From: a virus
Taxonomy: Duplodnaviria > Heunggongvirae > Uroviricota > Caudoviricetes
Virus record (IMG/VR): IMGVR_UViG_3300005613_000033
Span: 19,132-83,131 of that record
Strand: one strand, 5' to 3'
DNA length: 64,000 nucleotides
Shown: positions 12,262-43,432 of the stretch, piece by piece
Layout: every line of letters starts with the position of its first letter
Numbering within the stretch: position 1 is the stretch's first letter
Program-made: the position numbers and the translations under genes
Notes under the pieces: generated by a model
What the model saw: only the letters and a program-made list of their open reading frames with translations
What the model was told of the DNA's origin: nothing
The model's database searches: none

Positions 12262-14109
12262 ATGGCCACCCCTGCTGCAACCTTTCAAAACTTGGTTTCT
12301 GCTAGGCACCCAGTCTACTTACGTGATTTTGGGCACTGGCAACTTTGGCGAAATACCTACGAGTCTGGTGAATACTATGTGAGTAATTACTTACAAAAGT
12401 TTACCACTCGTGAAGATGATGAGGCTTTCACGGCGAGAAAGTCCATCACTCCGATTCCCGCCTTTGCTAAAGCAGCAATCAATGACGTTCGGAATTCAAT
12501 TTTCCAACGACTACGCGATGCTCTCCGTAAAGGAGGTTCACAGACCTACAAATATTCTGTCCAAGGTTTGGAAGGTGGCGTTGATATGCGTGGTTCCAGT
12601 ATGGACAAGTTTATGGGTGTCGATATCTTAACAGAATTACTTGTTATGGGGCGAGTAGGTTGTTATGTAGATATGCCCGTAGCTACCCCTAGCTTTTCTG
12701 TTGAGGCTAGTCTTGCCGATACCATGGAACAACGCCCGTATCTCTATATGTACCCAGTCGAAGATATTCTTTCTTGGACATGTAGTAATCCCAGTAAACC
12801 AGAGGAATTTCAATCATTATTACTGCGTGATCGTTGCACGACTTTCAAACAACCAGGTGGTTATCAAGTTCGTATCCCCGATGGTAATTATGAACGATTT
12901 AGATTGGTTTGGATCAATCAAGAAACAGGAAGGGTCAATGTTCAATTTTTTGATCCTCAGGGGATGCCTATTGATAGGGACACTGGTTTACCAACAGCCG
13001 ACGAACCTATTGAACTCGAATTAACTAAAATCCCGTTCTGTCTTTTAGATATAGGTGATAGCCTACTGAAAGACGTTTGTAGACACCAAATTGCGTTATT
13101 GAATTTAGGTTCAAGTGATGTAGCATACGCATTGAAAGCGAATTATCCTTTTTATATTGAGCAACGAGATTTACGCGCTGTCGGAGACCATCTTAAACAT
13201 GCAACTAATCCTGATGGTACGGCAACAGCCGGTGGTCAAGGGGCTAAAGATGAAGAGATTCAAGTAGGGGCGACTCAGGGCCGTGCTTACGATATGAAGA
13301 TGGAAGCTCCATCATTTATTCATCCGTCCCCAGAGCCATTAGAGGCATCAATAAAGTTGCAAGAAAAACTTGAGGACGATATTCGTAAATTGGTCCAACT
13401 TGCTATTCAAAATAAAGTAGGTAAACGAGTATCTCCCGAATCAAAAGAAATGGATAATCAAGGTTTGGAAGCTGGATTATCTTTTATTGGGCTTATACTT
13501 GAAGGAGCCGAAAGACGGTTAGCTGAATTCTGGGCGGCTTACGAAGAACGTAAGCCACGTAAACGCCTTATCGCCACAATAAAATATCCTGATCGGTATA
13601 GTCTAAAGACTGACAGGGATCGTATTGAAGAAGCTACAAAAGTTGCTGAACTCATGTATACTGTGCCAGGAGCTACAGTTAAACGTGAACTAGCAAAGAA
13701 CATTGTAGAAACTCTTTTAAGTGGAAAAACTACCGTTGAAACTTTAGACAAAATCTATAGGGAAGTATCTACCGCTAATTATACAACTAGTGACCCCGAT
13801 ACCGTTATTAGGGCCATGGAGGCAGGGTTGTGTGGGGAGCAGACTGCGTCAATAGCCCTTGGATTCAGTGAGAATGAATACCTCCAGGCTCGAAAGGATC
13901 ACATGGAACGTATTCTACGTATTAAAGAAGCCCAATCATCTGGCGATGAGGAGGACAATATACGGGAGGGAGCCCGTGGTGTAAACGACTTATCTGCTGA
14001 TCCGGCCCACGAAGGTAGGGAAGAAAAAGAAGAAAGTCGTGACACAACCCTGAGTGATTCTGTAGACAAACCCGTTCGCGGTAAAGGCCGCGACAAGCAA
14101 ACTGATTAG
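12262..14109 (+). CDS. putative portal protein
   Basis: 615 aa, immediately after the terminase region. Acidic C-terminal tail. RBS GAGGTG. Called from position and size only. Confidence 0.5.
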   Translation: MATPAATFQNLVSARHPVYLRDFGHWQLWRNTYESGEYYVSNYLQKFTTREDDEAFTARKSITPIPAFAKAAINDVRNSIFQRLRDALRKGGSQTYKYSVQGLEGGVDMRGSSMDKFMGVDILTELLVMGRVGCYVDMPVATPSFSVEASLADTMEQRPYLYMYPVEDILSWTCSNPSKPEEFQSLLLRDRCTTFKQPGGYQVRIPDGNYERFRLVWINQETGRVNVQFFDPQGMPIDRDTGLPTADEPIELELTKIPFCLLDIGDSLLKDVCRHQIALLNLGSSDVAYALKANYPFYIEQRDLRAVGDHLKHATNPDGTATAGGQGAKDEEIQVGATQGRAYDMKMEAPSFIHPSPEPLEASIKLQEKLEDDIRKLVQLAIQNKVGKRVSPESKEMDNQGLEAGLSFIGLILEGAERRLAEFWAAYEERKPRKRLIATIKYPDRYSLKTDRDRIEEATKVAELMYTVPGATVKRELAKNIVETLLSGKTTVETLDKIYREVSTANYTTSDPDTVIRAMEAGLCGEQTASIALGFSENEYLQARKDHMERILRIKEAQSSGDEEDNIREGARGVNDLSADPAHEGREEKEESRDTTLSDSVDKPVRGKGRDKQTD

Positions 14110-14120
14110 GAGTAAAACTT

Positions 14121-14822
14121 ATGGCTATTCCCGTTAATGTTGTAGAAGGGACAATCGAAACTGTCGTTGAAGTGGGAAATATCGAAAATATAACCCAAGT
14201 TAACGAAGTTGTCAACGTCCAAGAGGTTGCAAATGTAGCTAACGTAGCTGAGGTTGCTAACGTAGCTGAGGTTGCTAACGTAGCTAACGTAGCTGAAGTT
14301 GCTAATGTAGCTGAAGTTGCTAACGTAGCTGAGGTTGCTAACGTAGCTGAGGTTGCTAACGTAGCTAACGTAGCTGAAGTTGCTAATGTAGCTGAAGTTG
14401 CTAATGTAGCTAACGTAGCTGAGGTTGCTAACGTAGCTGAGGTTGCTAACGTAGCTGAGGTTGCTAACGTAGCTGAGGTTGCTAATGTAGCTGAAGTTGC
14501 TAACGTTGAGAGTGTAGCGGCATTGGTTAAGGAAACGACAGCATTTACCACTGTTGTGACAGCTAATTCCGAGACAGCTAACACAGCCAAGCAGTTACAT
14601 GCCGATACAGCCGCGAACAAGTTCGTGATGGTTCGGTCGCGTGACGATAACAGCACTACTAACCCATTGTGGGTTGGTAAGTCCACAGTTGATGCCCAAA
14701 ACAGTGCTAATGGTTATCCGTTGGACGCTGGTGAAAGTATCACTCTTCCAGTTGAGAACGCTAACGAAGTGTATGTAGACTCGGTCTCTGCGAATCAGAA
14801 TTATACATACGTCGTAGTCTAA
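14121..14822 (+). CDS. structural protein with ~32 tandem Val-Ala-Asn / Val-Ala-Glu tripeptide repeats (9-nt codon period, 18-nt DNA unit)
   Basis: Protein (VANVAE)n region across residues 35-130. RBS TAGGAG. The C-terminal ~100 aa is non-repetitive. Confidence 0.55.
   Translation: MAIPVNVVEGTIETVVEVGNIENITQVNEVVNVQEVANVANVAEVANVAEVANVANVAEVANVAEVANVAEVANVAEVANVANVAEVANVAEVANVANVAEVANVAEVANVAEVANVAEVANVAEVANVESVAALVKETTAFTTVVTANSETANTAKQLHADTAANKFVMVRSRDDNSTTNPLWVGKSTVDAQNSANGYPLDAGESITLPVENANEVYVDSVSANQNYTYVVV
14226..14513 (+). repeat. in-frame tandem DNA repeat, unit GTAGCTGAGGTTGCTAAC (18 bp, ~16 copies with synonymous variants)
   Basis: Read directly. The antisense ORF 13922-14686 (TSATLA repeats) is its mirror and is not coding. 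Confidence 0.85.
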
Positions 14823-14890: not shown

Positions 14891-15205
14891 ATGAGCATTC
14901 CAACACGGGTAAAGAGTGGTGTCATCTCAATTCAAGATGCACCTTTAGTGCCGAAGGGTTACCAACAACTAACCCCATCTACGGCAACAGGACTAACAGT
15001 CCCCGCTGGTGCTACAATGGCCCTCATTCAAGCCGTGACACAGAACGTTCGATGGCGTGATGATGGCACGTCCCCAGCAGCAGGTGTAGGGATGCGAATT
15101 TCTGCTGGGGAAGAATTTTGGTACACTGGAGACTTAGACGCAATTGAATTTATTGAAGAAGTAGCCAGTACCCAACTCAATGTATCCTATTATTCAACTG
15201 AATAA
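14891..15205 (+). CDS. hypothetical structural protein (104 aa)
   Basis: ORF in the morphogenesis module. Confidence 0.4.
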   Translation: MSIPTRVKSGVISIQDAPLVPKGYQQLTPSTATGLTVPAGATMALIQAVTQNVRWRDDGTSPAAGVGMRISAGEEFWYTGDLDAIEFIEEVASTQLNVSYYSTE

Positions 15206-15216
15206 GGAGTTAACCT

Positions 15217-15540
15217 ATGGCTGATCGCCTAAGAATTACCGAGACTAGCGATTCCGATATGAAGGAACGCTATTGGGACAAGTTCTATCGTCCCCAACGG
15301 CAACAGGTTGGTCCTTTAACAGCCGAGCGAGAGGTCGCTTGGGGAGTTCTTCGTTTGACCAGTGGTAATAACCAAGATGATCTTGCCACTATTGAAACAG
15401 CAATTGAAGCCGTAAATGGCGTTGATGATTGCGAGTTGGTTGTTAGTGGACAAGTTCCGACTGCGAATGATATTCCGGCTGACTACGAAGTTTATGCTAC
15501 TGTTGAGGGTCGATTCGTACTGCAAGAAAATGCAGTCTAA
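15217..15540 (+). CDS. hypothetical structural protein (107 aa)
   Basis: RBS TAAGGAG. Followed by a terminator. Confidence 0.45.
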   Translation: MADRLRITETSDSDMKERYWDKFYRPQRQQVGPLTAEREVAWGVLRLTSGNNQDDLATIETAIEAVNGVDDCELVVSGQVPTANDIPADYEVYATVEGRFVLQENAV

Positions 15541-15550
15541 TTTTAACAAT

Positions 15551-15589
15551 CCCGACAGTCGGGGGATGTTCCCGACTGTCGGATCTTTT
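15551..15589 (+). terminator. rho-independent terminator
   Basis: CCCGACAGTCGGG..CCCGACTGTCGG stem followed by ATCTTTT. Confidence 0.6.
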
Positions 15590-15631: not shown

Positions 15632-18600
15632 ATGGCTACGTATTACTGGAGATCGTCGGTCAATAACACCTGGACCTCAAATAACTGGTCAACTACTGAC
15701 GGTGGTCCACTTAGTGGAACTTATCCACAGGCTGGCGATACAGCTATTTTCAAAGCTTCTAGCGGGCAAGGTAATTGCGGGCTGGATGCTAATGTTTCCA
15801 TAACAAAATTGGACATGCGCTCTGATTACACAGGGACGCTAAGTGGTAATACGTACAATTTCACGACAACTGGTGACATGATTATCGCCGGTACACAGAT
15901 CATAGCGGGTAGTGGTACCTGGACAACCGCAGGTCATTTGAACTATGTAAATGTGGGGACGTTTACGCCAAATGCCTCAAAATTCATAATGACCGGGACA
16001 GGAAAAACACTAACCAATAGTGCCGCAAATCGATACTTTTATGATCTTGAAATCAATGGGACAATTTCTGCCGTGGGGGCTGTCTTGTGGCATAATTCGC
16101 TTACGATTAAAACAGACAAATCATTGACACTAACCGACACCGATGCTGGAAACTACAACCTTGGTGGGACTTGTATCTCGAAATTGTACTTGGAATCCGG
16201 GGCAGATTTTGATCTAGGTGGACACCAAATTAATTGGTTTACTCCTGGTACAGGTGGTGTCCAGTCGATGGCGTCTACGGCTCGTATTCGTAATGGATCG
16301 ATTCGTTGTCTCTACCCCTCAACAACTACAGGTGTAGGGGTTTGGGATTTTGGGGCTACTTATGGTTGGGAAGTTAACTTCCGTGTGTTTGGACCTTCAG
16401 GTAACGATGGACATTTTACATTCCCGAATAAGGTATGTAAGATTGGTGGTTATTTTCGTGCTGAGATTCGTTCTTGGTATCCGAATGGTAGTCTCACACT
16501 CCATGCGGCCGGTAGCTCAACTGACGTGCAAATTAGTGGCTATTTTGCCACTCTCTCCGATACAGTTAATATTGGGTCTGTCAATGTCGATAACACAGGG
16601 GTGACTGGAAATAAATGGACGTTCAACAGTCATGTATATGATTGGATGGAAACGGCAAATGGTGCATCACGAGGGTGGACAAAGAATGCTGAATCCTGTT
16701 ACGCCAGTAGCGCAGTTGCCAGGGATTGGGACTTTACGAACTGGACAGTCCAAACCATTCAAATCTATGCTTCCAGTGGCACAGTCACTATGAATTCGGA
16801 TGTTAATTGTGTAAACTTCGACGTTAGTCAAGGTACATTCGATGCCAATGATTATGATCTCTATGTGCAAGGAAACTTCTTTGTTCGGACAAATGCCACT
16901 TGGACATTAAGTTCCAGCACCATTATCAATCTTACTGGTTCTGCTGCATCACAAATTGAAGCAGTCCCACGAGTCGATCCTATTACATTAAATCGAACTG
17001 GTGCTGGTGGTATGACGCAATCTGGGAATGTTCATACATCAAATCTAGTACTAACAGATGGGTTTTGGACTGGGGTTTCCTATGATCTTGAAACTCACGC
17101 TGGGTTGTCAAAAGGGGCTAGTGCCGGCCCTATCGACCTTGGAACTGGTGATATTACAGGTTGGGGCGATATCGATATCACAAGCATGGATGCGACAGGG
17201 TGTCAAATTATCTTTGCAGCATCTAAAACTCTAACCTATACCAATTGGCAATACCTAGATAGACTACAAATTATCAATAGTTCGACATGTTCATTGATGG
17301 CGGGTACGGACATAGTGATTAACATCACTGGTTCTGTGGATCTTCAAGCTAATTCGACATTCGATACTAAAGACCAACGTGTTTATTGCTGGACTGATGC
17401 AAGGGTTTGGATTCGGACAAATGCCCTGTGGACTGGTACACGTCAGCAATCACTACTATTCTATAATACTACATCAGGTAATGGATTGGTACTGAATGAC
17501 GGAATCTACGCTGGTTACGAGCTTCGATTCTATCAATGTACAGCGGGGACGCGATGGGCACCAGGGGTTTATAATCAGATTACTACTTACATTTATGGTG
17601 GTAATGATTGCTATATAAAACCCGACGCGGGAACTTTTTACCTCGCCAATCATCTGAGATTAAACAATATTAGTGGTAACGCCGTTTACATAGACATGAC
17701 AAATAATCCCACTTTCCAAATAGGAGGAGATTGTCTGTACGGCGGTGGTATTACGTCTGCCGATATTTTTTGGACTGTTAACGATGAGACATTTGAATTC
17801 GTTGGGTCAGCTAATCAGGAGTATGAATGGGCCCATGAAATTGGAAACGTTGTAGTAGATAATTCGGGTACAGGTAGTGATCTCTTCTTGAATCTTGGTT
17901 ATGGAGCCCACTTACATTGTAAAAATTTAACTGGTACTGATGGTGGAATTAACTGTGACTCACATCAAGTTACTGTTGAAGGAGATTGTGTCCTTGATTT
18001 CGATAACTTGACAACAGGTGGTGCAGATTGGAATTTATATGGTCATTTTGATTGGAAAGATGTGACAACTTGGTCAGTAGATTCTAGTCAAAAGTTCATA
18101 ATGAATGGGGTTGACAAGTATCTATTGGGAGGTGGTACAAAAGCCCTTCCATATCTGACGATTCCGGCAGGCAAATCAGCTTATATTCATGCTAGTACAA
18201 GCGTGGCAGTTGATATTAATTCTGCGGCTACTATTGCTGGTACTTTAACTGTCGATGGCACTGTTGATTTTCGACTTTATAGTGCTAATCTAACAGTTGA
18301 AACAACTGGCACCGTAACAGGTACTAGTGATGTTATCTTTTATCTGGCTGGTAGCAACACCGGGCTTATCCTAAATGGTTCTTACACCTATAGCCCCGCT
18401 CGAACATACTTTGTTGATCCAGACACAACCTCATTGATCCCAGCAGGAACTTATGGTGGGCATATTCGAGTTCATTCTACAAGTGGTGTCAAAACATGGC
18501 AACCTGATACCGGGACTTATGATATTTCTGGATATCTACTCTTTGAAGCTGAAGATGGGGATACATTGAATGTAGATTGCCGATCCTCACAACCTGTTTT

Positions 18601-21600
18601 TAATGTTGGAAGTCTTCTGTTCTTGCGGTCTGGGGCGACATCAGGTGGTTTGAATGTCTATTGTAACCACCCAACTCTGGATATTGACTGGACTATCAAT
18701 GGTACTTCATCCTATCACTTCGCTACCAATAATTGGTTCAAGGGTTCAGGCACCATTACTTTCAACGGTGGGGATACCCGTGAAATTGACTTCTATGATA
18801 ATGAAGTTGAAAATATCATCATAAATAAAACAGGTGGTACGGATATCTCGTTAGCTTACGAGTTGAAGTGTGATAGTCTTACAATCAATTCCGGCGATTT
18901 TGACGCATCAACATACGATGTAACAGTTGGTGACCTTACTTTAACAGGAACGGGTGCAATAGACTGGGGTGATAATACCTGGGAAATCTCAGGTAATATC
19001 TCTACCACTGGCCAAAGTGGAACTTGGATAGGAGGAGGTACAACTTGGAATCTATCAGGTTCGGGGAAAACATGGACGCAACGAGACAATATGGTCATCG
19101 CCAATACCTGGATCAAATCGGGCGCTAGCTACAATTGTTCGGGTATTATTATACCGGTCTATGGTTCTGGAAGTACCTTTATAATAGATGGTACAATCAC
19201 TGGGATTGCTAGCTTCCGGTGTTACTATGGTGAAATACATCTAAATTCGACAGGTGTATTTCAAGCTAACTTTATACGTTCGTATCTGGCACAAGATGGT
19301 GGTGGATTTACTACCTGGGATGGTGATTATGATTCATTGAGTGGCTTGCTCCACCTACGAGAGTGGCACACAGCGGGGGTTATGGTTCCGGCTGATTACT
19401 CGGCCCATAACTTAGAAGTTCGTATAGAGTCCCGATTGCATAATGGTGATATGGTGTTTAGCAGCGGTACCTACACATTCCATCATTTAACATGCCAAGC
19501 AATATATGCTGGTTATACCACAGCTATCAATACAACCAACAATCCTGATATAATTATTAAGGGTAACCTTAATAGCGACGTAACATTGGGGACCTTAACT
19601 TGGACAAAGGGTACTGGTACAATTACTATGGATTCCACAGGCGACTATATCATTGGGATGGGTGGCCTAGAATTAGAAAATATGGTGATTGATAAAAATA
19701 GTAGTATCACCTTAACAGCGGACCTCGATGTAACTAGCCTCGAAATTAGCAGCGGTGACTTTGATGCGGCAGGATATAATGTCACAATAAGTTCTGATGC
19801 TCTGGATATCTCAACATCTGGAACCGTAGACTGTGGAAGCGGTGACTGGACGTGTTGGGGTGACGTAATTATCGACGGTATAGGTACCTATAATGTTGAC
19901 ACCGCCAATTTCTATCTCAAAGGTACAAGTAAAGGGATTGCTACAGCCACAGATTATTGGGGTTTTGAAAATCTTTATGTCACGGGGTCGTACACTGCCA
20001 ATGGTTTAGGGGATGCGGATAACGTTTACGTCGCAGGTATCTTGGATATCACTGGAACATTTATTACAGGTAACACAAACACAGGTGGGCTAACACTTGC
20101 TGTCAATACTGATCTTCGTATACAAACAGGCGGGACTCTAACCGGTGGTGGGGCAACGACGGGTGAGATACGATGGTACTTCCCAGAAGTAGGTATCACA
20201 GTCTTAGATGGAACTTGGAGTAATTGGATTACACAAATTTACTACCCTAATACCGCAGCGAATTGGGTACCAGGAACGTATGATTGCCGTATCGAGTGGA
20301 TAACCAGCCCTGATGTTGCATGTGTTGTTAATTTTGACGCAGGTACTTACAACTTTACAGGTGGTTTAATTCAATTCCGTGTAGGTATCAGTGGGAATAT
20401 TCACGATGAAGATTTGACTGTCAATCTAAATGCCGGTACGGTCTTCAATACTAGTAATGATACTGCGTTCGGATTTGCAATGACTGAATCAACCAGTACA
20501 GGTGATCTATATTTTAATTGCAATAATGCAAACTTCAATTTTAGTGGCAACGTTTTCCTAAATGACTCCTCACCCGGTAGTGATGTGATCTATACTAAAG
20601 GTACAGGGACTATCACATTTGAGGGTGACGTAAATCAATTTGTTAATATGCCGTATTCATTGGAAGACATTGTAGTCAATAAATCAGCTAATACAGTAGA
20701 TTTTGTGAGTGCTATCACATGTGAGACCTATACCCTAACCTCTGGCGGGGCCGATTTCAATGACGATGCCACGACTGGTGTTGTTAGTATCACAGGCGGT
20801 ACTCAGAGTATGACTGGGACTAACAAGACCTGGACTTGTCCATCTTTCACCGTAAATGCAGGTGTGTCAGCCACAGTTGATGTGAATGACAACAATGTGA
20901 CGATCACCGGGGCTGGTGATCTGTCCTTTCTCGCGAACTGCAACATTTCATTCGGATCACGGACCTGGACTTGCAATGGTGATTTCTTTGCCACCGGTGA
21001 CACTGTAGTCTTCACCCGTGATACAAGCACATTGAGGCTTACAGGTACGGGTAACTTTACTTGTACAGGGAGCCTTTCAACAAAGTATCTCTATAGTATT
21101 GAAATTCCAGTTGGTGCAGTACGTACTGTACTTGCCGGAAGCAACATGTGTAGCTACAATACTGTTGGAACAGATGCAAGCATAGACGTTGATGGGACTC
21201 TCACTTTGAACGGGAGCGGTAGAGCTTTCTACCACTCAAAAATCAATCTCAATACTGGCGGTATAATTAACGGTAGTTCATTTCTCCAATGTTATGCTAA
21301 TGATAATGGTGGTGGACTTACGACATTAGATGGTACGCTGACACCTGGAACATTCTATCTGGATTACCCAACTGCTACCGCTATCTGTGTGTCAGGAACA
21401 TACGACTGTACTGTCTATGTTCAATGTAATGATTCTTCAAACAGCGTGTGGCAACTTTCCGCTGGCACCTACATTTACAACTATTCGGTGTATTATCAAG
21501 CTACGGATGCGGCTGGAAGTTTGACAATTAATGGAAGTGTCAACAATCCGGATCATGTCTACAAGCAACATGTCTTCTGGACCAATACAGGTGATGTTTT

Positions 21601-23140
21601 CTGGACGGCTGGAACTGGTACAATTACGTTCGATGACATTGGAGACTACGAAATTGACTTTGGTAACGAACTCATTGAAGACGTCCATATTGAAAAAGAT
21701 AGCCCGGGTAAAATAACTCTGAGAAATGATAACTTTTCAGCGGGTTCGCTTACTATCACAACTGGGGAATTTGATGCAAATGACCATGATGTTACCTTGA
21801 CTGGTGACTTTTATCAAGCCGATCTCACTAAATGTTATGCGGGTACAGGAACATGGACTATTAGTGGTGGGTTTGATAATTCATCTATTACAGCCGGTAA
21901 TAATTATTGGTTGGCTGAAGGTGGTGAAGTTAAGCTGGTAGGTACCGGTAATCTGAAATCCGAAGGTTGGAATTGGCAGAATGAATTTCATAAATTGACC
22001 ATTGAAGGTGACTATACAATCCCAGCTACTTCAAATGCGGTAACGGTATACGATGGTGCAGATGGTTGGTTGAAAATTGTAAATGGTGCGTCTTTAGTAG
22101 TAGATAATTCTGAAGGAGCTTGGGTTCGTGGTGATAATAATTTAATTGTTGAAAATGGCGGAACTCTCACAGTCACTGGCGGATTTTATGCGTTCCGACC
22201 AGGTATAGGTTATGGTGTAACTAATGATGGTATCATTAATGGGACTGGTAGATTCCGATTCTATGAGTATCAAGCTGGTGCTATAGCTACATCAGGAAAC
22301 TATAGTGTTCGATATCTTCAAATTTATTATGGTAGTAAATTTGAAATGGGGGCGGGGACTTGGATTACTGATAATATATATTTTGGTGCCTCTGATCAAA
22401 ATCTTATTATTGATATGAATTCTAATGATCCTATTATTAACACTTCTGGAGATGTAACCTTTAGAAACTTCTCTAATCACCAACTGACAATTAACCGTTC
22501 AGGAACTGCTAATGACTGGACAATTGAAGAAGATTTTACACGCAATGATACTGGATCATTTGTGTATACGAAAGGTGATGCTAATCTTTGTTTTGAAGGT
22601 GGTGGTACTCAAGTATACGACTGCGATGGTTTTGATGTAGAAGATATTATTATTGAGAAGTCAGGCGGTACTATGACACTGGAATCTGAATTAACTTGTG
22701 ATAGCTTGACACTTTTAGAGGGTGAATTTGATTTCAACGGACAAACAGTACAAACAACGGGTGACTTCATAATCAATGCAGCTAATGGTACGGATGCCAC
22801 AATTGTATCGGATGCCGATGCAATGAATGCAGCAAACATTACAGTAGGGAATGATTTTTATGTTTCTAACATTACGTTTAATGCAACTAATACATGGTAC
22901 TTAGACGTTCAGGGTGTAAATGCTCATGCTTATGACGTATCAGTACGATATAGCGATGCAAATGCAGGTACGACTATCGACGCGACGGCTCCAGGTAACA
23001 CAGATTTAGGCGTGAATTACAATTGGGACTTTGGACAATTACCGGGTGGAGCAGTAAGTAGTATTCACTCATTATCGTTCCACTGTTTCCCATGGACTCG
23101 GCACACTAATAGACATGTTCGCGGTAATCGCCGCATCTAA
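15632..23140 (+). CDS. giant 2502-aa modular Gly/Thr/Asn/Trp-rich protein (beta-helix-like fibre or adhesin candidate)
   Basis: About eight diverged ~300-aa modules, each containing GTGTITF(D/E)G ... N/EKxGG(T) ... L(T)IxSG(D/E)FDAx(x)YDVT. Examples: LTINSGDFDASTYDVTV, LEISSGDFDAAGYNVTI, LTITTGEFDANDHDVTL, LTLLEGEFDFNGQTVQT. No TM segment. Confidence 0.6.
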   Translation: MATYYWRSSVNNTWTSNNWSTTDGGPLSGTYPQAGDTAIFKASSGQGNCGLDANVSITKLDMRSDYTGTLSGNTYNFTTTGDMIIAGTQIIAGSGTWTTAGHLNYVNVGTFTPNASKFIMTGTGKTLTNSAANRYFYDLEINGTISAVGAVLWHNSLTIKTDKSLTLTDTDAGNYNLGGTCISKLYLESGADFDLGGHQINWFTPGTGGVQSMASTARIRNGSIRCLYPSTTTGVGVWDFGATYGWEVNFRVFGPSGNDGHFTFPNKVCKIGGYFRAEIRSWYPNGSLTLHAAGSSTDVQISGYFATLSDTVNIGSVNVDNTGVTGNKWTFNSHVYDWMETANGASRGWTKNAESCYASSAVARDWDFTNWTVQTIQIYASSGTVTMNSDVNCVNFDVSQGTFDANDYDLYVQGNFFVRTNATWTLSSSTIINLTGSAASQIEAVPRVDPITLNRTGAGGMTQSGNVHTSNLVLTDGFWTGVSYDLETHAGLSKGASAGPIDLGTGDITGWGDIDITSMDATGCQIIFAASKTLTYTNWQYLDRLQIINSSTCSLMAGTDIVINITGSVDLQANSTFDTKDQRVYCWTDARVWIRTNALWTGTRQQSLLFYNTTSGNGLVLNDGIYAGYELRFYQCTAGTRWAPGVYNQITTYIYGGNDCYIKPDAGTFYLANHLRLNNISGNAVYIDMTNNPTFQIGGDCLYGGGITSADIFWTVNDETFEFVGSANQEYEWAHEIGNVVVDNSGTGSDLFLNLGYGAHLHCKNLTGTDGGINCDSHQVTVEGDCVLDFDNLTTGGADWNLYGHFDWKDVTTWSVDSSQKFIMNGVDKYLLGGGTKALPYLTIPAGKSAYIHASTSVAVDINSAATIAGTLTVDGTVDFRLYSANLTVETTGTVTGTSDVIFYLAGSNTGLILNGSYTYSPARTYFVDPDTTSLIPAGTYGGHIRVHSTSGVKTWQPDTGTYDISGYLLFEAEDGDTLNVDCRSSQPVFNVGSLLFLRSGATSGGLNVYCNHPTLDIDWTINGTSSYHFATNNWFKGSGTITFNGGDTREIDFYDNEVENIIINKTGGTDISLAYELKCDSLTINSGDFDASTYDVTVGDLTLTGTGAIDWGDNTWEISGNISTTGQSGTWIGGGTTWNLSGSGKTWTQRDNMVIANTWIKSGASYNCSGIIIPVYGSGSTFIIDGTITGIASFRCYYGEIHLNSTGVFQANFIRSYLAQDGGGFTTWDGDYDSLSGLLHLREWHTAGVMVPADYSAHNLEVRIESRLHNGDMVFSSGTYTFHHLTCQAIYAGYTTAINTTNNPDIIIKGNLNSDVTLGTLTWTKGTGTITMDSTGDYIIGMGGLELENMVIDKNSSITLTADLDVTSLEISSGDFDAAGYNVTISSDALDISTSGTVDCGSGDWTCWGDVIIDGIGTYNVDTANFYLKGTSKGIATATDYWGFENLYVTGSYTANGLGDADNVYVAGILDITGTFITGNTNTGGLTLAVNTDLRIQTGGTLTGGGATTGEIRWYFPEVGITVLDGTWSNWITQIYYPNTAANWVPGTYDCRIEWITSPDVACVVNFDAGTYNFTGGLIQFRVGISGNIHDEDLTVNLNAGTVFNTSNDTAFGFAMTESTSTGDLYFNCNNANFNFSGNVFLNDSSPGSDVIYTKGTGTITFEGDVNQFVNMPYSLEDIVVNKSANTVDFVSAITCETYTLTSGGADFNDDATTGVVSITGGTQSMTGTNKTWTCPSFTVNAGVSATVDVNDNNVTITGAGDLSFLANCNISFGSRTWTCNGDFFATGDTVVFTRDTSTLRLTGTGNFTCTGSLSTKYLYSIEIPVGAVRTVLAGSNMCSYNTVGTDASIDVDGTLTLNGSGRAFYHSKINLNTGGIINGSSFLQCYANDNGGGLTTLDGTLTPGTFYLDYPTATAICVSGTYDCTVYVQCNDSSNSVWQLSAGTYIYNYSVYYQATDAAGSLTINGSVNNPDHVYKQHVFWTNTGDVFWTAGTGTITFDDIGDYEIDFGNELIEDVHIEKDSPGKITLRNDNFSAGSLTITTGEFDANDHDVTLTGDFYQADLTKCYAGTGTWTISGGFDNSSITAGNNYWLAEGGEVKLVGTGNLKSEGWNWQNEFHKLTIEGDYTIPATSNAVTVYDGADGWLKIVNGASLVVDNSEGAWVRGDNNLIVENGGTLTVTGGFYAFRPGIGYGVTNDGIINGTGRFRFYEYQAGAIATSGNYSVRYLQIYYGSKFEMGAGTWITDNIYFGASDQNLIIDMNSNDPIINTSGDVTFRNFSNHQLTINRSGTANDWTIEEDFTRNDTGSFVYTKGDANLCFEGGGTQVYDCDGFDVEDIIIEKSGGTMTLESELTCDSLTLLEGEFDFNGQTVQTTGDFIINAANGTDATIVSDADAMNAANITVGNDFYVSNITFNATNTWYLDVQGVNAHAYDVSVRYSDANAGTTIDATAPGNTDLGVNYNWDFGQLPGGAVSSIHSLSFHCFPWTRHTNRHVRGNRRI

Positions 23141-23150
23141 GGAGTAAACT

Positions 23151-23675
23151 ATGGCTATTACAGAAAATAGGTATTACGGAACGCTTTGCGAAGCCAACGA
23201 ATACTTTACAAACCGACTCCATGAAGAAGCGTGGTTTAGTTCCAACCCTAATGACCGCCCTAAAGCATTATTAAGAGCTACTCAATGTATGGATGCTTTG
23301 AACTATAAAGGTAATAAGCATAGTGTTTGGGAACTATTAGAACTTGATGAAGATGCGAGTGACGAAGAAATTCGAGAAGCGGAAACTGAACAATCACTTG
23401 AATTTCCGCGTGGAAGTGACACAGTCGAGCCAGAGGTCATTAAGATCGCGTGTTTTGAATGTGCTCATGCCCTATTGGACGGCGTTGATCCTGATTCTGA
23501 ACTTGAACAACTCTCAGTAGTTAGTCAAGGTGTAGCATCAGTACGGACAACCTACAACCGTAACCAAAAACCGATCGAACATTTACTTCATGGAATTCCT
23601 AGCGCAACTGCCTGGAGATTCATTAAGCCGTTCTTGCGGGATAGTGACAAAATTAAAGTAAGTAGGGTTTCATAA
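23151..23675 (+). CDS. hypothetical head protein (174 aa, acidic)
   Basis: RBS TAAGGAG. Position only. Confidence 0.4.
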   Translation: MAITENRYYGTLCEANEYFTNRLHEEAWFSSNPNDRPKALLRATQCMDALNYKGNKHSVWELLELDEDASDEEIREAETEQSLEFPRGSDTVEPEVIKIACFECAHALLDGVDPDSELEQLSVVSQGVASVRTTYNRNQKPIEHLLHGIPSATAWRFIKPFLRDSDKIKVSRVS

Positions 23676-23740: not shown

Positions 23741-24652
23741 ATGAATTTTGATCTTTATCTTTCGACAATTGAATTCGGTCTGTATGATAGTGATAATCCA
23801 GCAGGTGATCTGGCAGCGAGTGATCCAGCAGGTGATTTAGCAGGTAGTGAGCCAGCAGGCGCGCCCTCGGGGGCTCCGGCCGGAGGTTCGGTACCTATTG
23901 ACCCTAGTGCTGGGGCTAGCGATGGCACTGGTGGAAAGGTATTTTCACAAGACGATGTAAACCGTATTGTACAAGACCGTCTCGCTAAGGACAGAAAGAC
24001 ACAAGAACAGAAATACCGAGACTTGGAAGGGGAATACAAAACACTTTTGGAAAATCAGTCACTTTCGACCGATCAACGTGAGAAGTTGGAGAGTGAACTG
24101 GAAGATATCCAAAAGCGATTCCGTACCAAGGAACAACAACTAGCACATGAAAAGAGACAGATCGAAGAGCGCCTGTCGGGCGAACTTGAAACCTATAAGA
24201 CCGCCGCAATCGAATGGGAGAACAAGTACAAGACATCTGTAACTGATCGTGCTTTAATCGACGCGGCAACTGGTGGCGAAGCTTTCAACCCCACTCAAGT
24301 AGTGGCCCTTCTTCGTCCTATGACGAAGATGATGGAAGCAAAGGGACCAGATGGTCAGCCAACAGGGCAATTAGTTCCTATGCTCGACTTCCCAGACGTG
24401 AATGAGGCAGGGGAACCAGTGATGACACAACGAACCCCAGATGAAGCTGTTAAGAGGATGAAAGAAATACCTGAACAGTATGGAAATCTCTTCAAATCTA
24501 ATGTCGTTAGCGGCATCGGAGCGGGTTCCGCTACCGGGGGCGTTACTCCGGGTTCTGCTGGACGGATTGATGTACGGAAGCTCACACCTGAGCAATACAT
24601 GAAGATTAGGAAGGAAAACCCAAGCCTTCTTGGTCTGAAGCCGAGCAGCTAA
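23741..24652 (+). CDS. putative scaffolding protein
   Basis: Low-complexity Ala/Gly/Pro N-terminus, long predicted coiled coil (EQKYRDLEGEYKTLLENQ...KRQIEERLSGELETYK), directly upstream of the major capsid gene. RBS AGGAG. Confidence 0.5.
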   Translation: MNFDLYLSTIEFGLYDSDNPAGDLAASDPAGDLAGSEPAGAPSGAPAGGSVPIDPSAGASDGTGGKVFSQDDVNRIVQDRLAKDRKTQEQKYRDLEGEYKTLLENQSLSTDQREKLESELEDIQKRFRTKEQQLAHEKRQIEERLSGELETYKTAAIEWENKYKTSVTDRALIDAATGGEAFNPTQVVALLRPMTKMMEAKGPDGQPTGQLVPMLDFPDVNEAGEPVMTQRTPDEAVKRMKEIPEQYGNLFKSNVVSGIGAGSATGGVTPGSAGRIDVRKLTPEQYMKIRKENPSLLGLKPSS

Positions 24653-24709
24653 ACATTGGGGTATTCGTTTAACTACAAATCTGTAACTAACTCCTACAGG
24701 AGACCTAAG

Positions 24710-26113
24710 ATGAATTTTTATCTTTCACAAGCAATGGTCGCCTTGTATGACAACGACAACAGCGCTTTCATTCCCGAGCTTTGGGCGATGGAAGGTCTGC
24801 ATATTCTCGAAGAGAATATGGTAATGGCAAATTTGGTCCGTCGTGACTTTTCGCCCAAGATTGCCAACTATGGTGACGTTGTAAATACTCGTCGACCGGG
24901 AACTTTCGCTACACGGCGTAAGACCGACTCGGATTCAATCGAGCTTCAAGATGCTCGTGCGACTAACGTGCAGGTTCCTCTGAATCAGCACATGTACATC
25001 TCCTTCACCATCAAAGACGGTGAAGCAAGTAAATCCTTCCAGGAACTCGTGGATATCTACCTGTTGCCAGGTATGATGGGTATCGCTCGTGGTATTGATC
25101 GTGCTATTCTCGGTGCAGCTCCCGATTTCTTGGCCAACAAGGTTGGTAAACTTGGTGCTCTGAGTGCGCTCAATGCCAAGGATTACTTACTGGAAGCCCG
25201 TGAGACGATGAATGAGAATCTCGCGTTCCCAGAAAGCCGCAACTGCGTACTGGCCCCGTCTGCTGAGACGGCAATGCTCAAGACAGAAATGTTCTTGAAG
25301 GCCAACGAGCGTGGTGATGGTGGTCGTGCTCTGCGTGAAGCGGCCCTCGGTCGTGTACTCGGATTCGATACGTGGATGGATCAGAACGTTTCTGGTCTGA
25401 ATGCTGTTGATCTTGACACAGCACCGGGTGAATTGACAACCGGTTACGCGGCAGGTCATGCTGCAAACATGGCGATTGATCTGGACCCTGATTATATCGC
25501 CAGCGTAGGCGAGTTCTGTGTAATCTCCAGCGACGGTCAGCCGACTGCTCTGTCGGTTGCATCGTCTAATGCAGGCGACACTGACGTGATCGCCCTGGAC
25601 GCTGCTTTGAAGTATGCGGTTTCCGCTAATGATCCTATCACCGTATACAAGAAGTGTGCGATTGATAACGTTGGTGGTTACGCGGCTGGTTGGACCAAGG
25701 GAATTAACCTTGATTCCTTCACGGCTGGCAAGCATCCTCGCGTTGGTCAAATCCTCAAGATCGGTGCGGCAACGTATGTCGTAATCGAGTCCGAGGATAA
25801 TAGTGGTGACCGTATGGTCTGGCTAGATCGTCCTCTGGAAGCTGCTGTACTTGACGGTGCGGACGTATTTCCAGGCCCCGCTGGTTCATTTAACCTTTGC
25901 TTCCATCGCGATGCTATCGCTCTGGTCAGTCGTCCGTTGGCTCTGCCTGCTGGCGCACTCGGCGTGCGTTCGCAGGTTGGTGTGTACAACAATGTTGCAA
26001 TGCGTGTTACCATGCAATACGACATTACCTCTCAAGGTACCGTTGTCACACTCGACATTCTGTGTGGTGTGAAGACATTGGATGAGCGCCTCGGTTGCGT
26101 GCTGCTTGGTTAA
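24710..26113 (+). CDS. putative major capsid protein
   Basis: 467 aa. ATG at 24710 with RBS CAGGAG. Follows the scaffold-like gene and is followed by the strongest terminator in the window. The ORF-track start at 24656 lacks an RBS. Confidence 0.55.
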   Translation: MNFYLSQAMVALYDNDNSAFIPELWAMEGLHILEENMVMANLVRRDFSPKIANYGDVVNTRRPGTFATRRKTDSDSIELQDARATNVQVPLNQHMYISFTIKDGEASKSFQELVDIYLLPGMMGIARGIDRAILGAAPDFLANKVGKLGALSALNAKDYLLEARETMNENLAFPESRNCVLAPSAETAMLKTEMFLKANERGDGGRALREAALGRVLGFDTWMDQNVSGLNAVDLDTAPGELTTGYAAGHAANMAIDLDPDYIASVGEFCVISSDGQPTALSVASSNAGDTDVIALDAALKYAVSANDPITVYKKCAIDNVGGYAAGWTKGINLDSFTAGKHPRVGQILKIGAATYVVIESEDNSGDRMVWLDRPLEAAVLDGADVFPGPAGSFNLCFHRDAIALVSRPLALPAGALGVRSQVGVYNNVAMRVTMQYDITSQGTVVTLDILCGVKTLDERLGCVLLG

Positions 26114-26506: not shown

Positions 26507-29500
26507 ATGAGCTATCAAGAACGCCGCTACCGACGAATGGTACGACAAGTCCTCTATGGACTGAAGCGTCAATATGGCGCAGATATTGCCGTATACAAGC
26601 TGCTGGATGCTGATACAGACTATACAACTGGTCTCAAAACCATTCATAAGCTAAGTGAAGAGTTGGAAGCAGTCGTTATACCTACTAAGATAGCACGTGA
26701 AGCCATACAATCCATCTCCCAAATTTCCGCTAATAAGGCGATGGTGTATGGTGGAACTTTCGATAGTTTGAGTAAGACATTTGTAATTGATTCGCGTGAT
26801 TTATCAGATAATTGGACGTTTACAAATGACGATTGGATTGTCTACAATCAACAACGTTTTGAAATTAAGGCTATAGAACGATTAGATTTCCATGCCGGTT
26901 GGATTATTGATGCAAAGGCTATTGCAGGTCAACATGCAGAACAAATCTTTCATTTAGAGGCGTGGAACAGATTATGTGACTTAACTCATTTTGCGGAAGT
27001 AGTACCGTGGTCAGCACATCATCCTAGTCAGGATATTCCTATTGACCATAATGTCTCAGTCCAAAAGATAATGTACCGCAGTGCGGAGAATACATTAACC
27101 TTGGGGCATTCTGTTTTCCTTGGGCAAGCTGAAAGTTTTGCAGCAGGAAATACTTTGACGTTGGGACAATCTGTTGATAAACAGAGAGTAATGTTTTTCC
27201 ATATTATCGAAGATGGCTTAGTCTTTAATACTCTCGGGCAAGGTATTGAAATTATCAAAGTTATTCAACGCATATTCGGGCATGAAAAAAGTGAAATTGA
27301 ACTTCAGCATGCGGTTAGCTTAGCAGGAAGTGTTTGGAATAGGCAAGCCGAATCCAATCTAACCTTAGATCACAGTGTCGATGTTTCGGGTGTCTGGAAT
27401 CGTCATCCTGAAAGTCAAATTGATTTAGATCATACTGCTGATCCATCTGGAAGTATCTACAACCGATCTGCCGAGAATACTCTAACACTTACTCACGAAG
27501 TTAGCACTGCTGGCACCTCGCTTGGAACACCAGTTGAATCAGAACTTGATTTGGACCAGGTGGTTAGTTACTCTGCCGTCTTCAATCGGGGTGCAAGTTC
27601 TGAGATTGGTATTGACCAAGAGGTCAATATCGAAGGAAGTATTTGGTATCGAGATGCTGAATCTGATATCAGTATTGACCACGGTGCTAGTATTGTTCAT
27701 ATACTCCATGCTAATGCTAAGAATACATTAACCTTAGGTCAATATGTTGCTGCTACCTATGTCCAGTATGCTACGGCCCAATCTAGCCTTAGTTTAGGGC
27801 AAGATGTTGAGTCTCAAAAAGTAATTTATCGTACTGCTGAATCTAATCTTGGGTTAGATGCGTTTAGTCAGTACGTTTTAGTGAGTACACATCGTGATTT
27901 AAGTGCTTCATCAAGTATTAGTCTTGGTCAAGATGTAAGTACAGAAGGTAGTATTTGGAATCGTAATCCAGATAATGAGTCATTTGAGGGGTCAACACTC
28001 ACATTAGATCACACAGCTTCTACAGAGGGAAGTATCTGGAATCGGGGTCCTGATAATACACTTACTCTAACACAGGATGTAATTAGCTCCGGTAGCATCT
28101 TCAATCGAGACCCACAATCAGATATTGATCTCGATCAAGATGTTGCAAAAACACGAGCCCAAAATGATGGATCATCCTCTGAACTTGAATTAGATCATGG
28201 GACTGGCGTTCTAGTCGTACGACCACGTAGCGCTCAGAATGATATTAGTGTAGACCATGGTGTAATTGTTCAAAAGGTCATGTATGCGTCAGCGCAATCT
28301 GATTTAAGTTTGGTTGGAGTTTGCAATTATCAAGTTGGGTCAGAAGGTAACGGTATAAGCACGTTGACTTGCGGGCACAGCGTAAGTCTGGAAGGAAGCA
28401 TTTGGAATAGGGGCCCAGATAATAACACCTTGGACGGTAACACTCTCACCCTTGGACAGACTACCCAACTGTCCGTAATTCGTCAAAGAGATGCCCAATC
28501 GACTCTGTCCTTGAGCCAAGAAGCAAGTGCGGCTGGAAGCATCTATAATCGAGGGGCAGAGAATACTCTAACCTTATCGCAAGATGTAATTAGTTCTGGT
28601 AGCATCTTCAATCGTGATTTGCAATCAGATATTGATCTCGATCAAGATGTTGCAAAAACACGAATAGCAAGTGATGGTTCGTCATCTGAACTTGAATTAG
28701 ATCATGGAACTGGCGTCCAAATTATTCGTTCACGTAGTGCTCAGAATGATCTTAACATAGACCATGATATCACTGTTCAGAAGGTGATATATGTATCAGC
28801 ACAATCTGATTTGAGTTTGACCGGTATTTGTAATTATCAAGTCGGAACCGAAGCCAATGGCGTAAGTACGTTGACTTGCGGGCACAGCGTAAGTCTGGAA
28901 GGAAGCATTTGGAATAGGGGCCCAGATAATAACACCTTGGACGGTAACACTCTCACCCTTGAGCAGACTATCCAACTGTCCGTAATTCGTCAAAGAGATG
29001 CCCAATCGACTCTGTCCTTGAGCCAAGAAGCAAGCGCGGCTGGAAGCATCTATAATCGAGGGGCAGAGAATAGTTCACTAGAAGAGTCAACATTAACCCT
29101 CACACAAAATACCAGCTCTACGGGCAGCATCTACAATCGTGGCCCCGATAATAACACCCTTGAGGGCTCTCAGTTGGCCCTTACGCAGCAAGTAGACGTA
29201 CAGGCCATTCTGAGTCGGGGTGCCAGTAGCACGCTCTCTATGGGCCACACAGCGTCCGTATTGGTGTATCGTGGACAGGCAGTTGGTAACACATTGTCAT
29301 TAGACCACGATGTGACTGCCCAGAAAACAATGAGCCGTGACGCGGAAAGTACACTCAGTATCCTTGACGCGGCAAACGTACAGAAGATTATCCACAAGTC
29401 AGCTAGTTCACCACTCAGCTTGGCACAACAAGTTGGACTCTCGATTATCCGAGAACTGTCGGCCAGCAACCAGCTTATGCTATATCACGATGCACTGGTC

Positions 29501-31432: not shown

Positions 31433-31442
31433 GGAGTAGATG

Positions 31443-43417: not shown

Positions 43418-43432
43418 TTGAGGGAGTTAGAT

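Follow-up and report, generated by a model that had tools for sequence, protein, structure and literature searches.

The question raised by this locus is what a single protein of 2,502 residues, to which an uncultured tailed phage gives over some 12% of the window (i.e., the whole 64,000-nt stretch of DNA that was analysed), does for that phage. As the earlier note had claimed, PHROGs and Pfam matches place the gene encoding this giant protein between the portal gene (positions 12262-14109) and the scaffold and major capsid genes (23741-26113, of which the major capsid gene takes up 24656-26113).

Gene and module architecture

The giant gene opens with an ATG preceded by GGAG 8 nt to its 5' side, and this ATG, at position 15632, is favoured as the true start because the MATYYW N-terminus recurs in five relatives. 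The product is rich in Thr (12.9%), Gly (12.0%), Asn (8.0%), Ser (7.8%), Asp (7.6%) and Trp (2.5%) and contains no transmembrane-like segment (maximum Kyte-Doolittle mean over 19 residues, 1.21), such that the earlier description of a protein heavy in Gly, Thr, Asn, Ser and Trp and devoid of membrane spans was confirmed. A check of the sequence likewise revealed no signal peptide, the N-terminus not being hydrophobic. The body of the protein is acidic and its tail is basic. The gene and its parts are as follows:

15632..23140, plus strand: giant gene (ORF, stop codon included) for a 2,502-aa protein of predicted modular beta-helix structure
15632..16660, plus strand: N-terminal cap motif MATYYW..W..NWS..GG..P..D.A.F and module M1 (aa 1-343; HMM, module alignment)
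16661..17755, plus strand: module M2 (aa 344-708; phmmer, HMM), first sub-segment duplicated
17756..18718, plus strand: module M3 (aa 709-1029; phmmer, HMM), 44% identical to P0001 module 3
18719..19585, plus strand: module M4 (aa 1030-1318), the structure-modelled module
19586..20575, plus strand: module M5 (aa 1319-1648; phmmer, HMM), 66% identical to P0003 module 2
20576..21586, plus strand: module M6 (aa 1649-1985; phmmer, HMM), first sub-segment duplicated, 59% identical to P0003 module 3
21587..22549, plus strand: module M7 (aa 1986-2306; phmmer, HMM)
22550..23137, plus strand: partial module M8, C-terminal cap (..DLGVNYNWDFG) and tail (aa 2307-2502; HMM)
22727..23137, plus strand: last 137 aa, the best-conserved stretch (72-85% identity) and candidate virion-anchoring region

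Self-BLASTP of the giant protein yielded no internal matches, the repeats being visible only to phmmer and HMMs. Indeed, single-module phmmer queries retrieved other modules (lowest independent E-value, 4e-13), while an HMM built from the protein's own modules detected nine copies in P0002 (5e-12 to 4e-39) and seven in P0001. With module starts at approximately residues 1, 344, 709, 1030, 1319, 1649, 1986 and 2307, the array comprises seven full modules of 289-365 aa and one 196-aa partial module bearing the C-terminal cap, in keeping with the "about eight" modules of some 300 aa originally counted. The anchors said to recur in each module (i.e., the GTGTITF-type, xKxGG and SG(D/E)FDA motifs) are crisp in M4-M8 and degenerate in M1-M3, such that "each" was an overstatement.

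Within the phage lineage, homologues of 928, 1,866, 1,928, 2,103 and 2,502 aa begin and end in the same manner, module number varies and, as mapped, the array is a recombination mosaic, with the C-terminus remaining strongly conserved. The last 137 residues are 72-85% identical among six lineage members, as compared to roughly 25-45% over most of the array, and the M8/C-terminal region shares 68-69% identity with the C-terminal ends of P0001 and P0003. The C-terminus consists of the beta-helix cap followed by a 35-aa tail that ends in the basic peptide FPWTRHTNRHVRGNRRI, with eight Lys, Arg or His found in the final 20 residues of an otherwise acidic protein.

At the other end, the cap motif, which also opens 83 of the 150 best family representatives (a rough regular-expression count), begins at residue 3, and modules occupy the whole length of the protein, leaving no N-terminal particle-binding domain. 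Across 19 aligned paralogous modules, only W6, G92 and G114 reach 90% conservation; no acidic or basic column does so, in a comparison that an enzymatic site limited to a single module would escape. As such, the earlier suggestion of a depolymerase-like protein is unsupported. Both observations speak against a reading in which the protein, encoded outside the tail module, is carried on the tail tube or tip as a tailspike or receptor-binding fibre and is possibly a depolymerase, a reading that is considered unlikely.

Predicted fold and sequence family

In the predicted structure, the modelled module M4 adopts a right-handed parallel beta-helix, i.e., the ordinary pectin-lyase-like fold, a beta-solenoid having first been proposed from composition. 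By structure comparison, the modelled module presents three-strand rungs coiled in a right-handed manner. A two-module model of M4-M5 was of moderate confidence overall (mean pLDDT 68; 73-95 at the junction) and could be aligned over 398-442 residues with Pet, Hap, VacA and EtpA. The best structural matches are monomeric passenger-domain helices rather than trimeric spikes, again arguing against a tail-borne spike. A Foldseek search of BFVD returned nothing at E<=1e-3. Since a beta-helix usually rises 4.8 A per rung, with 24-32 residues per rung, a projected length of roughly 35-50 nm can be estimated.

At the sequence level, the repeat family is new, as had been suspected. Searches with the whole protein yielded no Pfam family at E<=1 (including the Beta_helix, Pectate_lyase_3, NosD, haemagglutinin and PATR repeat models), no NCBIfam match and, in a profile search of PDB sequences, nothing at E<=10. 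Of eight relatives, six had no Pfam match and the other two matched only Laminin_G_3. No match was obtained among 50,697 GenBank phage records, whether by megablast with the 20 kb around the gene or by tblastn with the giant protein and its relative P0011, and no description of this beta-helix module family was found in the literature. The modules accordingly do not resolve into pectate-lyase or haemagglutinin repeats with tail-fibre homologues, no homologue being annotated as a tail fibre. The sole PHROGs match, a marginal one of 78 residues (E 0.0039), is to a tail-fibre family and counts in favour of the tail-associated reading.

A word-indexed search retrieved only two relatives with the whole protein and two fragments with the module profile; it was an exhaustive profile search that exposed the family, numbering 2,518 representatives (clusters at 50% identity) at E<=1e-3 and 446 at E<=1e-30. 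The family is defined by the module profile together with an N-terminal (R/Y)YW..W..NW cap and a C-terminal D.G.N.NW.F cap, all of which are found in the giant protein. Judged by these searches, the family is not rare; the fold is ordinary and the sequence family uncurated. Cluster look-ups for relatives provided no informative names. Probing with the C-terminal alignment yielded a single contig in IMG/VR, and none of 185,579 genomes contained a matching prophage.

Some family members are secreted cellular proteins bearing signal peptides, and because the family thus extends to cellular genomes, the module is not virion-specific. In P0002, Ser-rich linkers separate the beta-helix arrays. These resemble the linkers of exposed surface proteins and were counted for the fibre reading developed below. 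PDB profile searches with the N-terminal domain of P0002 and with the N-terminus of a 1,641-aa protein gave only chance-level matches.

Genomic contexts and neighbouring genes

The giant gene is not found in the position of a tail fibre gene, as the earlier note had maintained. Rather, adaptor, scaffold and major capsid protein (MCP) genes adjoin it, with the tape-measure gene lying 13 kb downstream. The immediate neighbours considered were:

14891..15205, plus strand: small gene A (104 aa), a second cassette-linked gene with homologues in L011 and L001/L008
15217..15540, plus strand: small partner gene B (107 aa), the conserved upstream neighbour, with homologues in five lineages
15552..15582, plus strand: conserved 14-bp G+C-rich hairpin followed by a T-rich run, between B and the giant gene (z -4.7)
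23151..23675, plus strand: head-tail adaptor (Ad1)-like gene, a possible docking partner (phrog_477, 5.8e-12; PF20557, 1.2e-8)

In the window, as in L001, L007 and L008, the gene order is portal-233-A-B-GIANT-adaptor-scaffold-MCP. Elsewhere, it reads GIANT-121aa-adaptor (L002), portal-MuF-38-90-GIANT (L003), MCP-DnaT_2-96-GIANT (L009), TerL-..-B-805aa-87-portal-MCP (L010) and 795aa-280-MCP (L016), while in L012 the beta-helix gene lies downstream of a Portal_Mu fusion protein. L009 and L002 encode a protein of the adaptor-like family, or an adaptor, within one gene of their beta-helix genes. In several unrelated uncultured phages, therefore, and in most readable contexts, the beta-helix gene is found in or beside head, packaging or connector genes. 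Such an order is only suggestive of a virion fibre, yet neighbours of this kind (portal, MCP, TerL or adaptor genes, not baseplate genes) count against a tail fibre encoded out of place. For the latter reading stands the lack of an obvious long fibre gene in the tail-distal region of the window.

Two members of the family point elsewhere than to a head or neck fibre and were likewise counted for the tail-associated reading. In L017, the member is encoded three genes from a minor tail protein, and in L004 it adjoins a Pel9A-like beta-helix gene. PHROGs searches with the L004 and L011 neighbours were uninformative.

Homologues of B are encoded directly upstream of the beta-helix gene in L001/L008, L004, L010, L011 and L012, at HMM E-values of 2e-28 to 6e-40 and, for the distant members, phmmer E-values of 4e-5 to 4e-10. 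Only 24 relatives of B were retrieved, every one unannotated, and single B proteins had no match in IMG/VR. In L011, a homologue of A (E 6e-26) directly follows the beta-helix gene, and another is found in L001/L008. The possibility that A and B are paralogues was rejected, as the two proteins give no alignment at all. PDB profile searches with A, B and the adaptor-like protein yielded only chance-level matches. The hairpin ends 49 nt before the ATG of the giant gene, and in the L001 copy the stem is kept via a compensatory change.

Because the place of the B-plus-beta-helix pair in the structural operon differs between phages (between TerL and portal, between portal and adaptor, or after MCP), it fits a mobile accessory unit. 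The product could then be a non-virion, moron-like accessory, released at lysis or acting in or on the infected cell, perhaps so as to block superinfection, or to bind or reshape biofilm matrix or polysaccharide outside the cell. The hairpin that parts the giant gene from the genes upstream and the secreted, surface nature of the cellular homologues would agree with this. By contrast, a signal peptide or transmembrane segment for export is lacking, the cassette is co-directional with and tightly packed among essential late structural genes (the adaptor-like gene begins 10 nt downstream of the giant gene), and the conserved terminal peptide resembles a docking element. A non-virion role is accordingly held to be quite improbable.

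A position right after the portal gene, with MuF-like minor head genes nearby in L003 and L009, also brings to mind an internal head protein that is packaged and ejected with the DNA, like N4 vRNAP or MuF/gp7-linked cargo. The giant protein is comparable in size to known packaged giants such as N4 vRNAP, and its basic C-terminal tail could touch DNA. Still, a rigid and very acidic beta-helix rod of 35-50 nm would be ill-suited to passage through the tail channel, and no enzymatic or toxin domain was detected by Pfam or NCBIfam. Moreover, an exposed surface protein is indicated by the Ser-rich linkers of P0002 and by a cap architecture also present in cellular proteins that bear signal peptides. 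Packaging within the head is thus deemed very unlikely.

Proposed role and known systems

The reading preferred here, to which a probability of roughly one half is assigned, is that the giant protein is a long, C-terminally anchored fibre or adhesin on the phage head or neck; we infer its association with the virion, the site of its anchor and its ligand. Gene context thus makes plausible the capsid fibre or adhesin put forward in the earlier note. The protein would form a long, acidic, all-beta rod in which an N-terminal cap, seven modules of about 300 aa arranged end to end, a C-terminal cap and the 35-aa tail follow one another, and would be present as a low-copy virion appendage. The conserved C-terminal 137 residues and basic tail would dock onto the particle, for which the adjacent head-tail adaptor or the small A and B proteins may serve as partners, leaving the variable N-terminal modules to project some 35-50 nm. 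These modules would bind host surface glycans multivalently and without enzymatic action during first, reversible adsorption, with reach and specificity being adjusted as modules are gained, lost or exchanged. Owing to the upstream hairpin, the giant gene may be expressed at a lower level than the genes before it. Counting against C-terminal anchoring, the fibres that have been studied well usually carry their conserved anchor at the N-terminus.

It is possible, if rather doubtful, that B and the modular beta-helix gene together form a mobile cassette that specifies an unrecognised class of giant fibres, docked at the C-terminus on head or neck, probably monomeric, common across uncultured phages, missing from every cultured phage and drawing on a module pool shared with giant cellular surface proteins. 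Head and neck appendages are often seen by microscopy and rarely assigned to genes; were the cassette real, it would offer a candidate identity for such fibres lacking known genes. Should the head- or neck-anchored fibre be borne out, the module profile, cap motifs and partner gene would provide a sequence handle on this class of appendage, and environmental phages would be seen to give over up to some 12% of their sequence (the share of the window here) to one adhesin whose modules are shuffled in register. Should an ordinary tail fibre turn out to be encoded here, away from its usual position, the finding would be worth less, with the family definition still standing. A curated family model would put a name to many giant proteins now listed as "hypothetical" in metagenomes, viral and cellular, given that the 2,518 representatives are without Pfam, NCBIfam, solved-structure or GenBank-phage BLAST relatives.

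Among known systems, tailspikes and capsule depolymerases (CBA120 TSP2-4, K1 lyase, phage K64-1 S2-4, HK620 and Det7 were compared) each carry, behind an N-terminal domain that binds the particle, a single beta-helix of some 300-400 aa. They also have catalytic acidic residues and trimer interfaces, and are encoded by tail-module genes. By contrast, the giant protein contains seven to eight tandem modules from residue 1 and no catalytic column conserved across aligned modules, is encoded in the head module and shows no detected sequence similarity to these proteins. The pre-neck appendage gp12 of Bacillus phage phi29 (854 aa) is a trimer with a single beta-helix and a C-terminal autochaperone that is cleaved off. 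In the giant protein, no C-terminal chaperone domain was detected by Pfam, and the cap and 35-aa tail are found instead; whereas gp12 attaches at the neck, we infer a neck location for the giant protein from the adjacency of the adaptor gene.

The capsid fibres and decoration adhesins known so far measure about 100-400 aa and are Ig-like or helical. Those compared (T4 Hoc, T5 pb10, phi29 gp8.5 and the head fibres or filaments of 7-7-1 and phiCbK) are head appendages of an accessory, dispensable type whose genes lie among those of the head, and they mediate weak multivalent adhesion. The giant protein would be like them in these respects, but is a 2,500-aa multi-module beta-helix by prediction and has no homology that was found to any of them. 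In phage 7-7-1, the head-fibre protein is still to be assigned (PMC12796354).

The closest structural likeness is to monomeric beta-helix passenger or toxin domains, namely, those of Helicobacter pylori VacA p55, the autotransporters Pet, Vag8 and Hap, and the TPS adhesin EtpA, at an identity of only 8-12%. Unlike these proteins, the giant protein lacks, by sequence and Pfam checks, a signal peptide, a TPS domain and a beta-barrel translocator; it is encoded by a phage and is built of discrete modules of some 300 aa between N- and C-terminal cap motifs of its own.

The giant gene, its modules and their predicted fold

The start of the giant gene is secure, as the N-terminal sequence MATYYW is common to its product and to five relatives; GGAG lies 8 nt 5' of the ATG. 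The gene is found in the following surroundings.

Features of the window around the giant gene
10245-11912, large terminase gene (PF05876, PF20454), 5' of the giant gene
12262-14109, portal gene (phrog_145), 5' of the giant gene
14121-14822, + strand, gene for a 233-aa VANVAE-repeat protein, directly after the portal gene
14891-15205, + strand, gene A (104 aa), 5' of gene B
15217-15540, + strand, gene B (107 aa), 5' of the giant gene
15552-15582, + strand, hairpin with a 14-bp stem and T-rich tail, between gene B and the giant gene
15632-23140, + strand, giant gene, an uninterrupted ORF of 2,502 codons
10 nt 3' of the giant gene, head-tail adaptor-like gene, 174 aa (phrog_477, 5.8e-12; PF20557)
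23741-24652, scaffold gene, after the adaptor-like gene
24656-26113, P22-coat-like major capsid protein (MCP) gene, after the scaffold gene
36087-40133, tape-measure gene (1,348 aa), marking a long-tailed phage

The giant protein contains 12.9% T, 12.0% G, 8.0% N, 7.8% S, 7.6% D and 2.5% W. As its Kyte-Doolittle mean over a 19-residue window never exceeds 1.21, it has neither a signal peptide nor a transmembrane segment. Its body is strongly acidic (252 D+E vs. 106 K+R), and K, R or H account for eight of the final 20 residues.

Self-BLASTP of the giant protein found no internal repeats. Single segments of some 300 aa, used as phmmer queries, aligned in register with other segments (independent E-values as low as 4e-13), and an HMM built only from the protein's own segments found nine copies in the relative P0002 (5e-12 to 4e-39) and seven in the relative P0001. 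With module starts at about residues 1, 344, 709, 1030, 1319, 1649, 1986 and 2307, the protein can be divided into seven complete modules of 289-365 aa and a final, partial one of 196 aa that bears the C-terminal cap; in modules M2 and M6 the first sub-segment is duplicated. The anchor motifs assigned to every module in the earlier note are clear-cut in M4-M8, whereas M1-M3 have degenerate versions.

The giant protein gave no matches in Pfam (E≤1), NCBIfam or PDB sequences (profile search, E≤10), nor in BFVD using Foldseek (E≤1e-3), while tblastn against 50,697 GenBank phage records matched neither it nor its relative P0011. A word-indexed homologue search found two relatives only. Exhaustive profile searching of 1.84 billion representatives returned 2,518 proteins at E≤1e-3, including 446 at E≤1e-30, ranging from about 350 to 6,677 aa and containing up to tens of matched stretches. 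No informative names were found among those members looked up, and a literature search found no description of the beta-helix module family. From the termini, the common architecture consists of an N-terminal cap (M-A-x-(R/Y)-Y-W...W...NWS..GG...P...D..F, often from the initiator Met), n modules, a C-terminal cap (D.G.N.NW.F) and a lineage-specific tail of 20-35 aa. By crude motif counts, 83 of the 150 best family matches have the cap at their very start, and in 22 the N-terminus is hydrophobic and resembles a signal. The family is uncurated and widespread; it has its own caps, tandemly organised modules, a small partner gene dedicated to it and an unusual position in the genome.

A subfamily comprising P0002 (L002, 242-9466) and P0013 carries an extra domain, distinct and about 350 aa long, at the N-terminus (mutual identity 25%, E 2e-14), and P0002 contains two capped beta-helix arrays with Ser-rich, SSTRSWTS-type linkers between them.

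In fold, the protein is a pectin-lyase-like beta-helix of the familiar kind; structurally closest to it are monomeric passenger/toxin helices and phage tailspikes. Structural matches of the module were VacA p55 (15.6), Vag8 (14.0), the Pet passenger (13.9), CBA120 TSP3 (13.7) and, at about 11-13.4, PL6 lyases, the SRRP adhesin and phi29 gp12, all at 5-14% sequence identity. A two-module model of M4-M5, generated from an eight-sequence alignment (A3), was weaker overall (mean pLDDT 68), with pLDDT values of 73-95 at the junction, and could be superposed on the long helices of Pet, Hap, VacA and EtpA over 398-442 residues. As this exceeds one module, the modelled helix probably continues through module boundaries. 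If each rung holds 24-32 residues and adds the standard rise of 4.8 A, the complete protein would be a rod about 35-50 nm long.

A constant C-terminus, a variable array and small partner genes

Proteins sharing the same termini measure 928, 1,866, 1,928, 2,103 and 2,502 aa, the equivalent of roughly 2.5 to 7 complete modules. The giant protein is a mosaic of its relatives' segments, with residues 1-1100 being collinear with P0005 (mostly 54-75% identity), residues 1100-2100 with residues 81-1185 of P0003 (37-79%, mostly 45-79%) and residues 2100-2300 best matching P0007 (50-61%). Non-orthologous modules are only about 25-35% identical. The final 100 or so residues are 62-86% identical to those of every member reaching the C-terminus. 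Over the last 137 residues, six members show 72-85% identity to the giant protein and 69 invariant positions, among which are H, W, R, T-N-R and G in the peptide ..H.(F/Y)(P/A)W(T/A)R.TNR...G.(R/C)(R/Q). at the very end. A constant end joined to a length-variable, recombining array is expected of an anchored appendage with an exposed part under diversifying pressure. That the protein is a non-virion accessory product is deemed unlikely. Two loci of the family, L006 and L013, are cellular and encode beta-helix proteins with signal peptides.

Homologues of gene B were found directly 5' of the beta-helix gene in L001/L008, L004, L010, L011 and L012, the distant ones being detected by phmmer at E 4e-5 to 4e-10 and the family HMM giving 2e-28 to 6e-40, and a homologue of gene A lies directly 3' of the beta-helix gene in L011 (E 6e-26). 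A/B genes travel with family beta-helix genes in otherwise unrelated phages (L004, L010, L011, L012). The pair of B and beta-helix gene thus behaves as a cassette at differing structural-operon positions in different phages. Only 24 relatives of B were detectable, all unannotated and without Pfam domains; PDB, PHROGs and Pfam yielded no relatives of A or B, and no A or B homologues were found in L002, L003, L009 or the cellular loci. The two proteins may be assembly chaperones or docking adaptors. They are not mutual paralogues.

The L001 copy of the hairpin keeps its stem via a compensatory C-G to T-A change, and the element may be a leaky terminator or RNA stability element.

Gene contexts and phage type

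Because no sheath-sized gene precedes the tape-measure gene in the window, the phage is probably a siphovirus. Its terminase is only 28% identical to the best cultured-phage match and megablast of 20 kb around the giant gene against GenBank phages gave no match, so that the phage represents an uncultured, deep-branching lineage.

Gene contexts of beta-helix genes (GIANT) of the family
Window, L001, L007, L008 (same lineage): portal - 233/291 - A - B - GIANT - adaptor - scaffold - MCP
L002: GIANT - 121 aa - head-tail adaptor (phrog_442) - ... - tail terminator - tape measure
L003: portal (PF04860) - MuF - 38 - 90 - GIANT
L009: portal - MuF - protease - MCP (PF05065) - DnaT_2 adaptor-like - 96 - GIANT (1,346 aa) - glycosyltransferase-like
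L010: TerS - TerL - methylase - 128 - B - 805 aa - 87 - portal - MCP
L012: 767-aa beta-helix gene, B just 5', Portal_Mu fusion protein about 5 kb upstream
L016: 795 aa - 280 - MCP (phrog_10) - glycosyltransferase-like
L014: beta-helix gene four genes after MCP
L017: beta-helix gene three genes from a minor tail protein
L004: beta-helix gene adjoining a Pel9A-like beta-helix gene
L005: 177-kb contig (JGI 3300027861), cluster of giant genes, some with LamG domains

Readable phage contexts were head-, packaging- or connector-proximal in most cases, not all. A neck or head location of the giant protein is favored because, in three lineages, at most one gene separates its gene from that of a head-tail adaptor, and because other lineages have it next to portal or MCP genes. 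A fibre or spike attached to the tail, with its gene out of place, is a doubtful alternative. Far less credible still is a packaged or ejected protein. The single PHROGs match of the giant protein, to a tail-fibre family, is marginal (78 residues, E 0.0039).

Other genes in these regions deserve mention. The VANVAE-repeat protein consists mostly of the tandem hexapeptide (about 20 copies), followed by a C-terminal domain of about 90 aa, and its sole family matches are PHROGs of unknown function; as the L001 orthologue is 291 aa rather than 233 aa long, repeat number varies. Just 3' of the capsid gene, 26507-31432 (+) encodes a second giant protein (1,641 aa; counterparts of 1,471, 1,419 and 1,742 aa in L001, L007 and L008), whose N-terminal 150 aa or so are globular and which also has dozens of ~25-aa repeats (..SAENTLTLGHSV.., ..GSIWNRGPDNTLTL..) and, C-terminally, a lectin-like Laminin_G_3 domain. 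Two Laminin_G_3 stretches occur in the product (564 aa) of the gene that follows (31440-33134, +). This suggests that the head/neck region encodes a second fibre. In L005, a contig that may be a jumbo phage or a cellular island, four very large tandem genes (5,067, 3,604, 775 and 2,408 aa) combine beta-propeller, Laminin_G_3 and family beta-helix modules. Three tandem paralogues (41319-44461, +; 347, 351 and 347 aa), all phrog_2448 of unknown function, lie 3' of the tape-measure gene. In a 1,057-aa protein (5066-8239, +), residues 665-744 and 856-971 give short, patchy matches to PHROGs of terminase, ribonucleotide reductase, thymidylate synthase and helicase, families unrelated to one another; such a pattern is typical of an intein or homing-endonuclease insertion.

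A sulfotransferase-like gene (phrog_3347) lies in the tail-distal region of the window (46086-46823, +). Glycosyltransferase-like genes are found directly 3' of the beta-helix gene in L009 (14083-17283) and just past the MCP gene, two genes after the beta-helix gene, in L016 (6594-8675). These genes hint that the Ser/Thr-rich beta-helix fibres might be glycosylated by the phage.

Proposed role and comparison with known systems

We consider the giant protein to be a virion appendage, probably of the neck or head, with a probability of about 0.5. In this role, the conserved C-terminal region would dock a beta-helical rod on the virion, with the variable modules projecting to provide multivalent binding of host surface glycans. 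The analysis itself shows the architecture, fold, family membership, gene contexts, partner gene and mosaicism; virion incorporation, anchor end, anchor site, ligand and stoichiometry are all inferred. The depolymerase-like activity raised in the earlier note gained no positive evidence, with no acidic or basic column being at least 90% conserved across modules, a measure that a catalytic site private to one module would escape.

According to a study of phage 7-7-1, the proteins of its head fibres have yet to be identified (PMC12796354), which shows that genes of this kind are a real gap. Unlike tailspikes, the giant protein has no N-terminal anchor domain and is encoded outside the tail module; unlike TPS/autotransporter adhesins, it has neither signal peptide nor translocator; and its fold differs from that of Ig-like decoration proteins. 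The nearest functional analogue is the phi29 neck appendage gp12, which has an autochaperone domain, whereas the giant protein does not.
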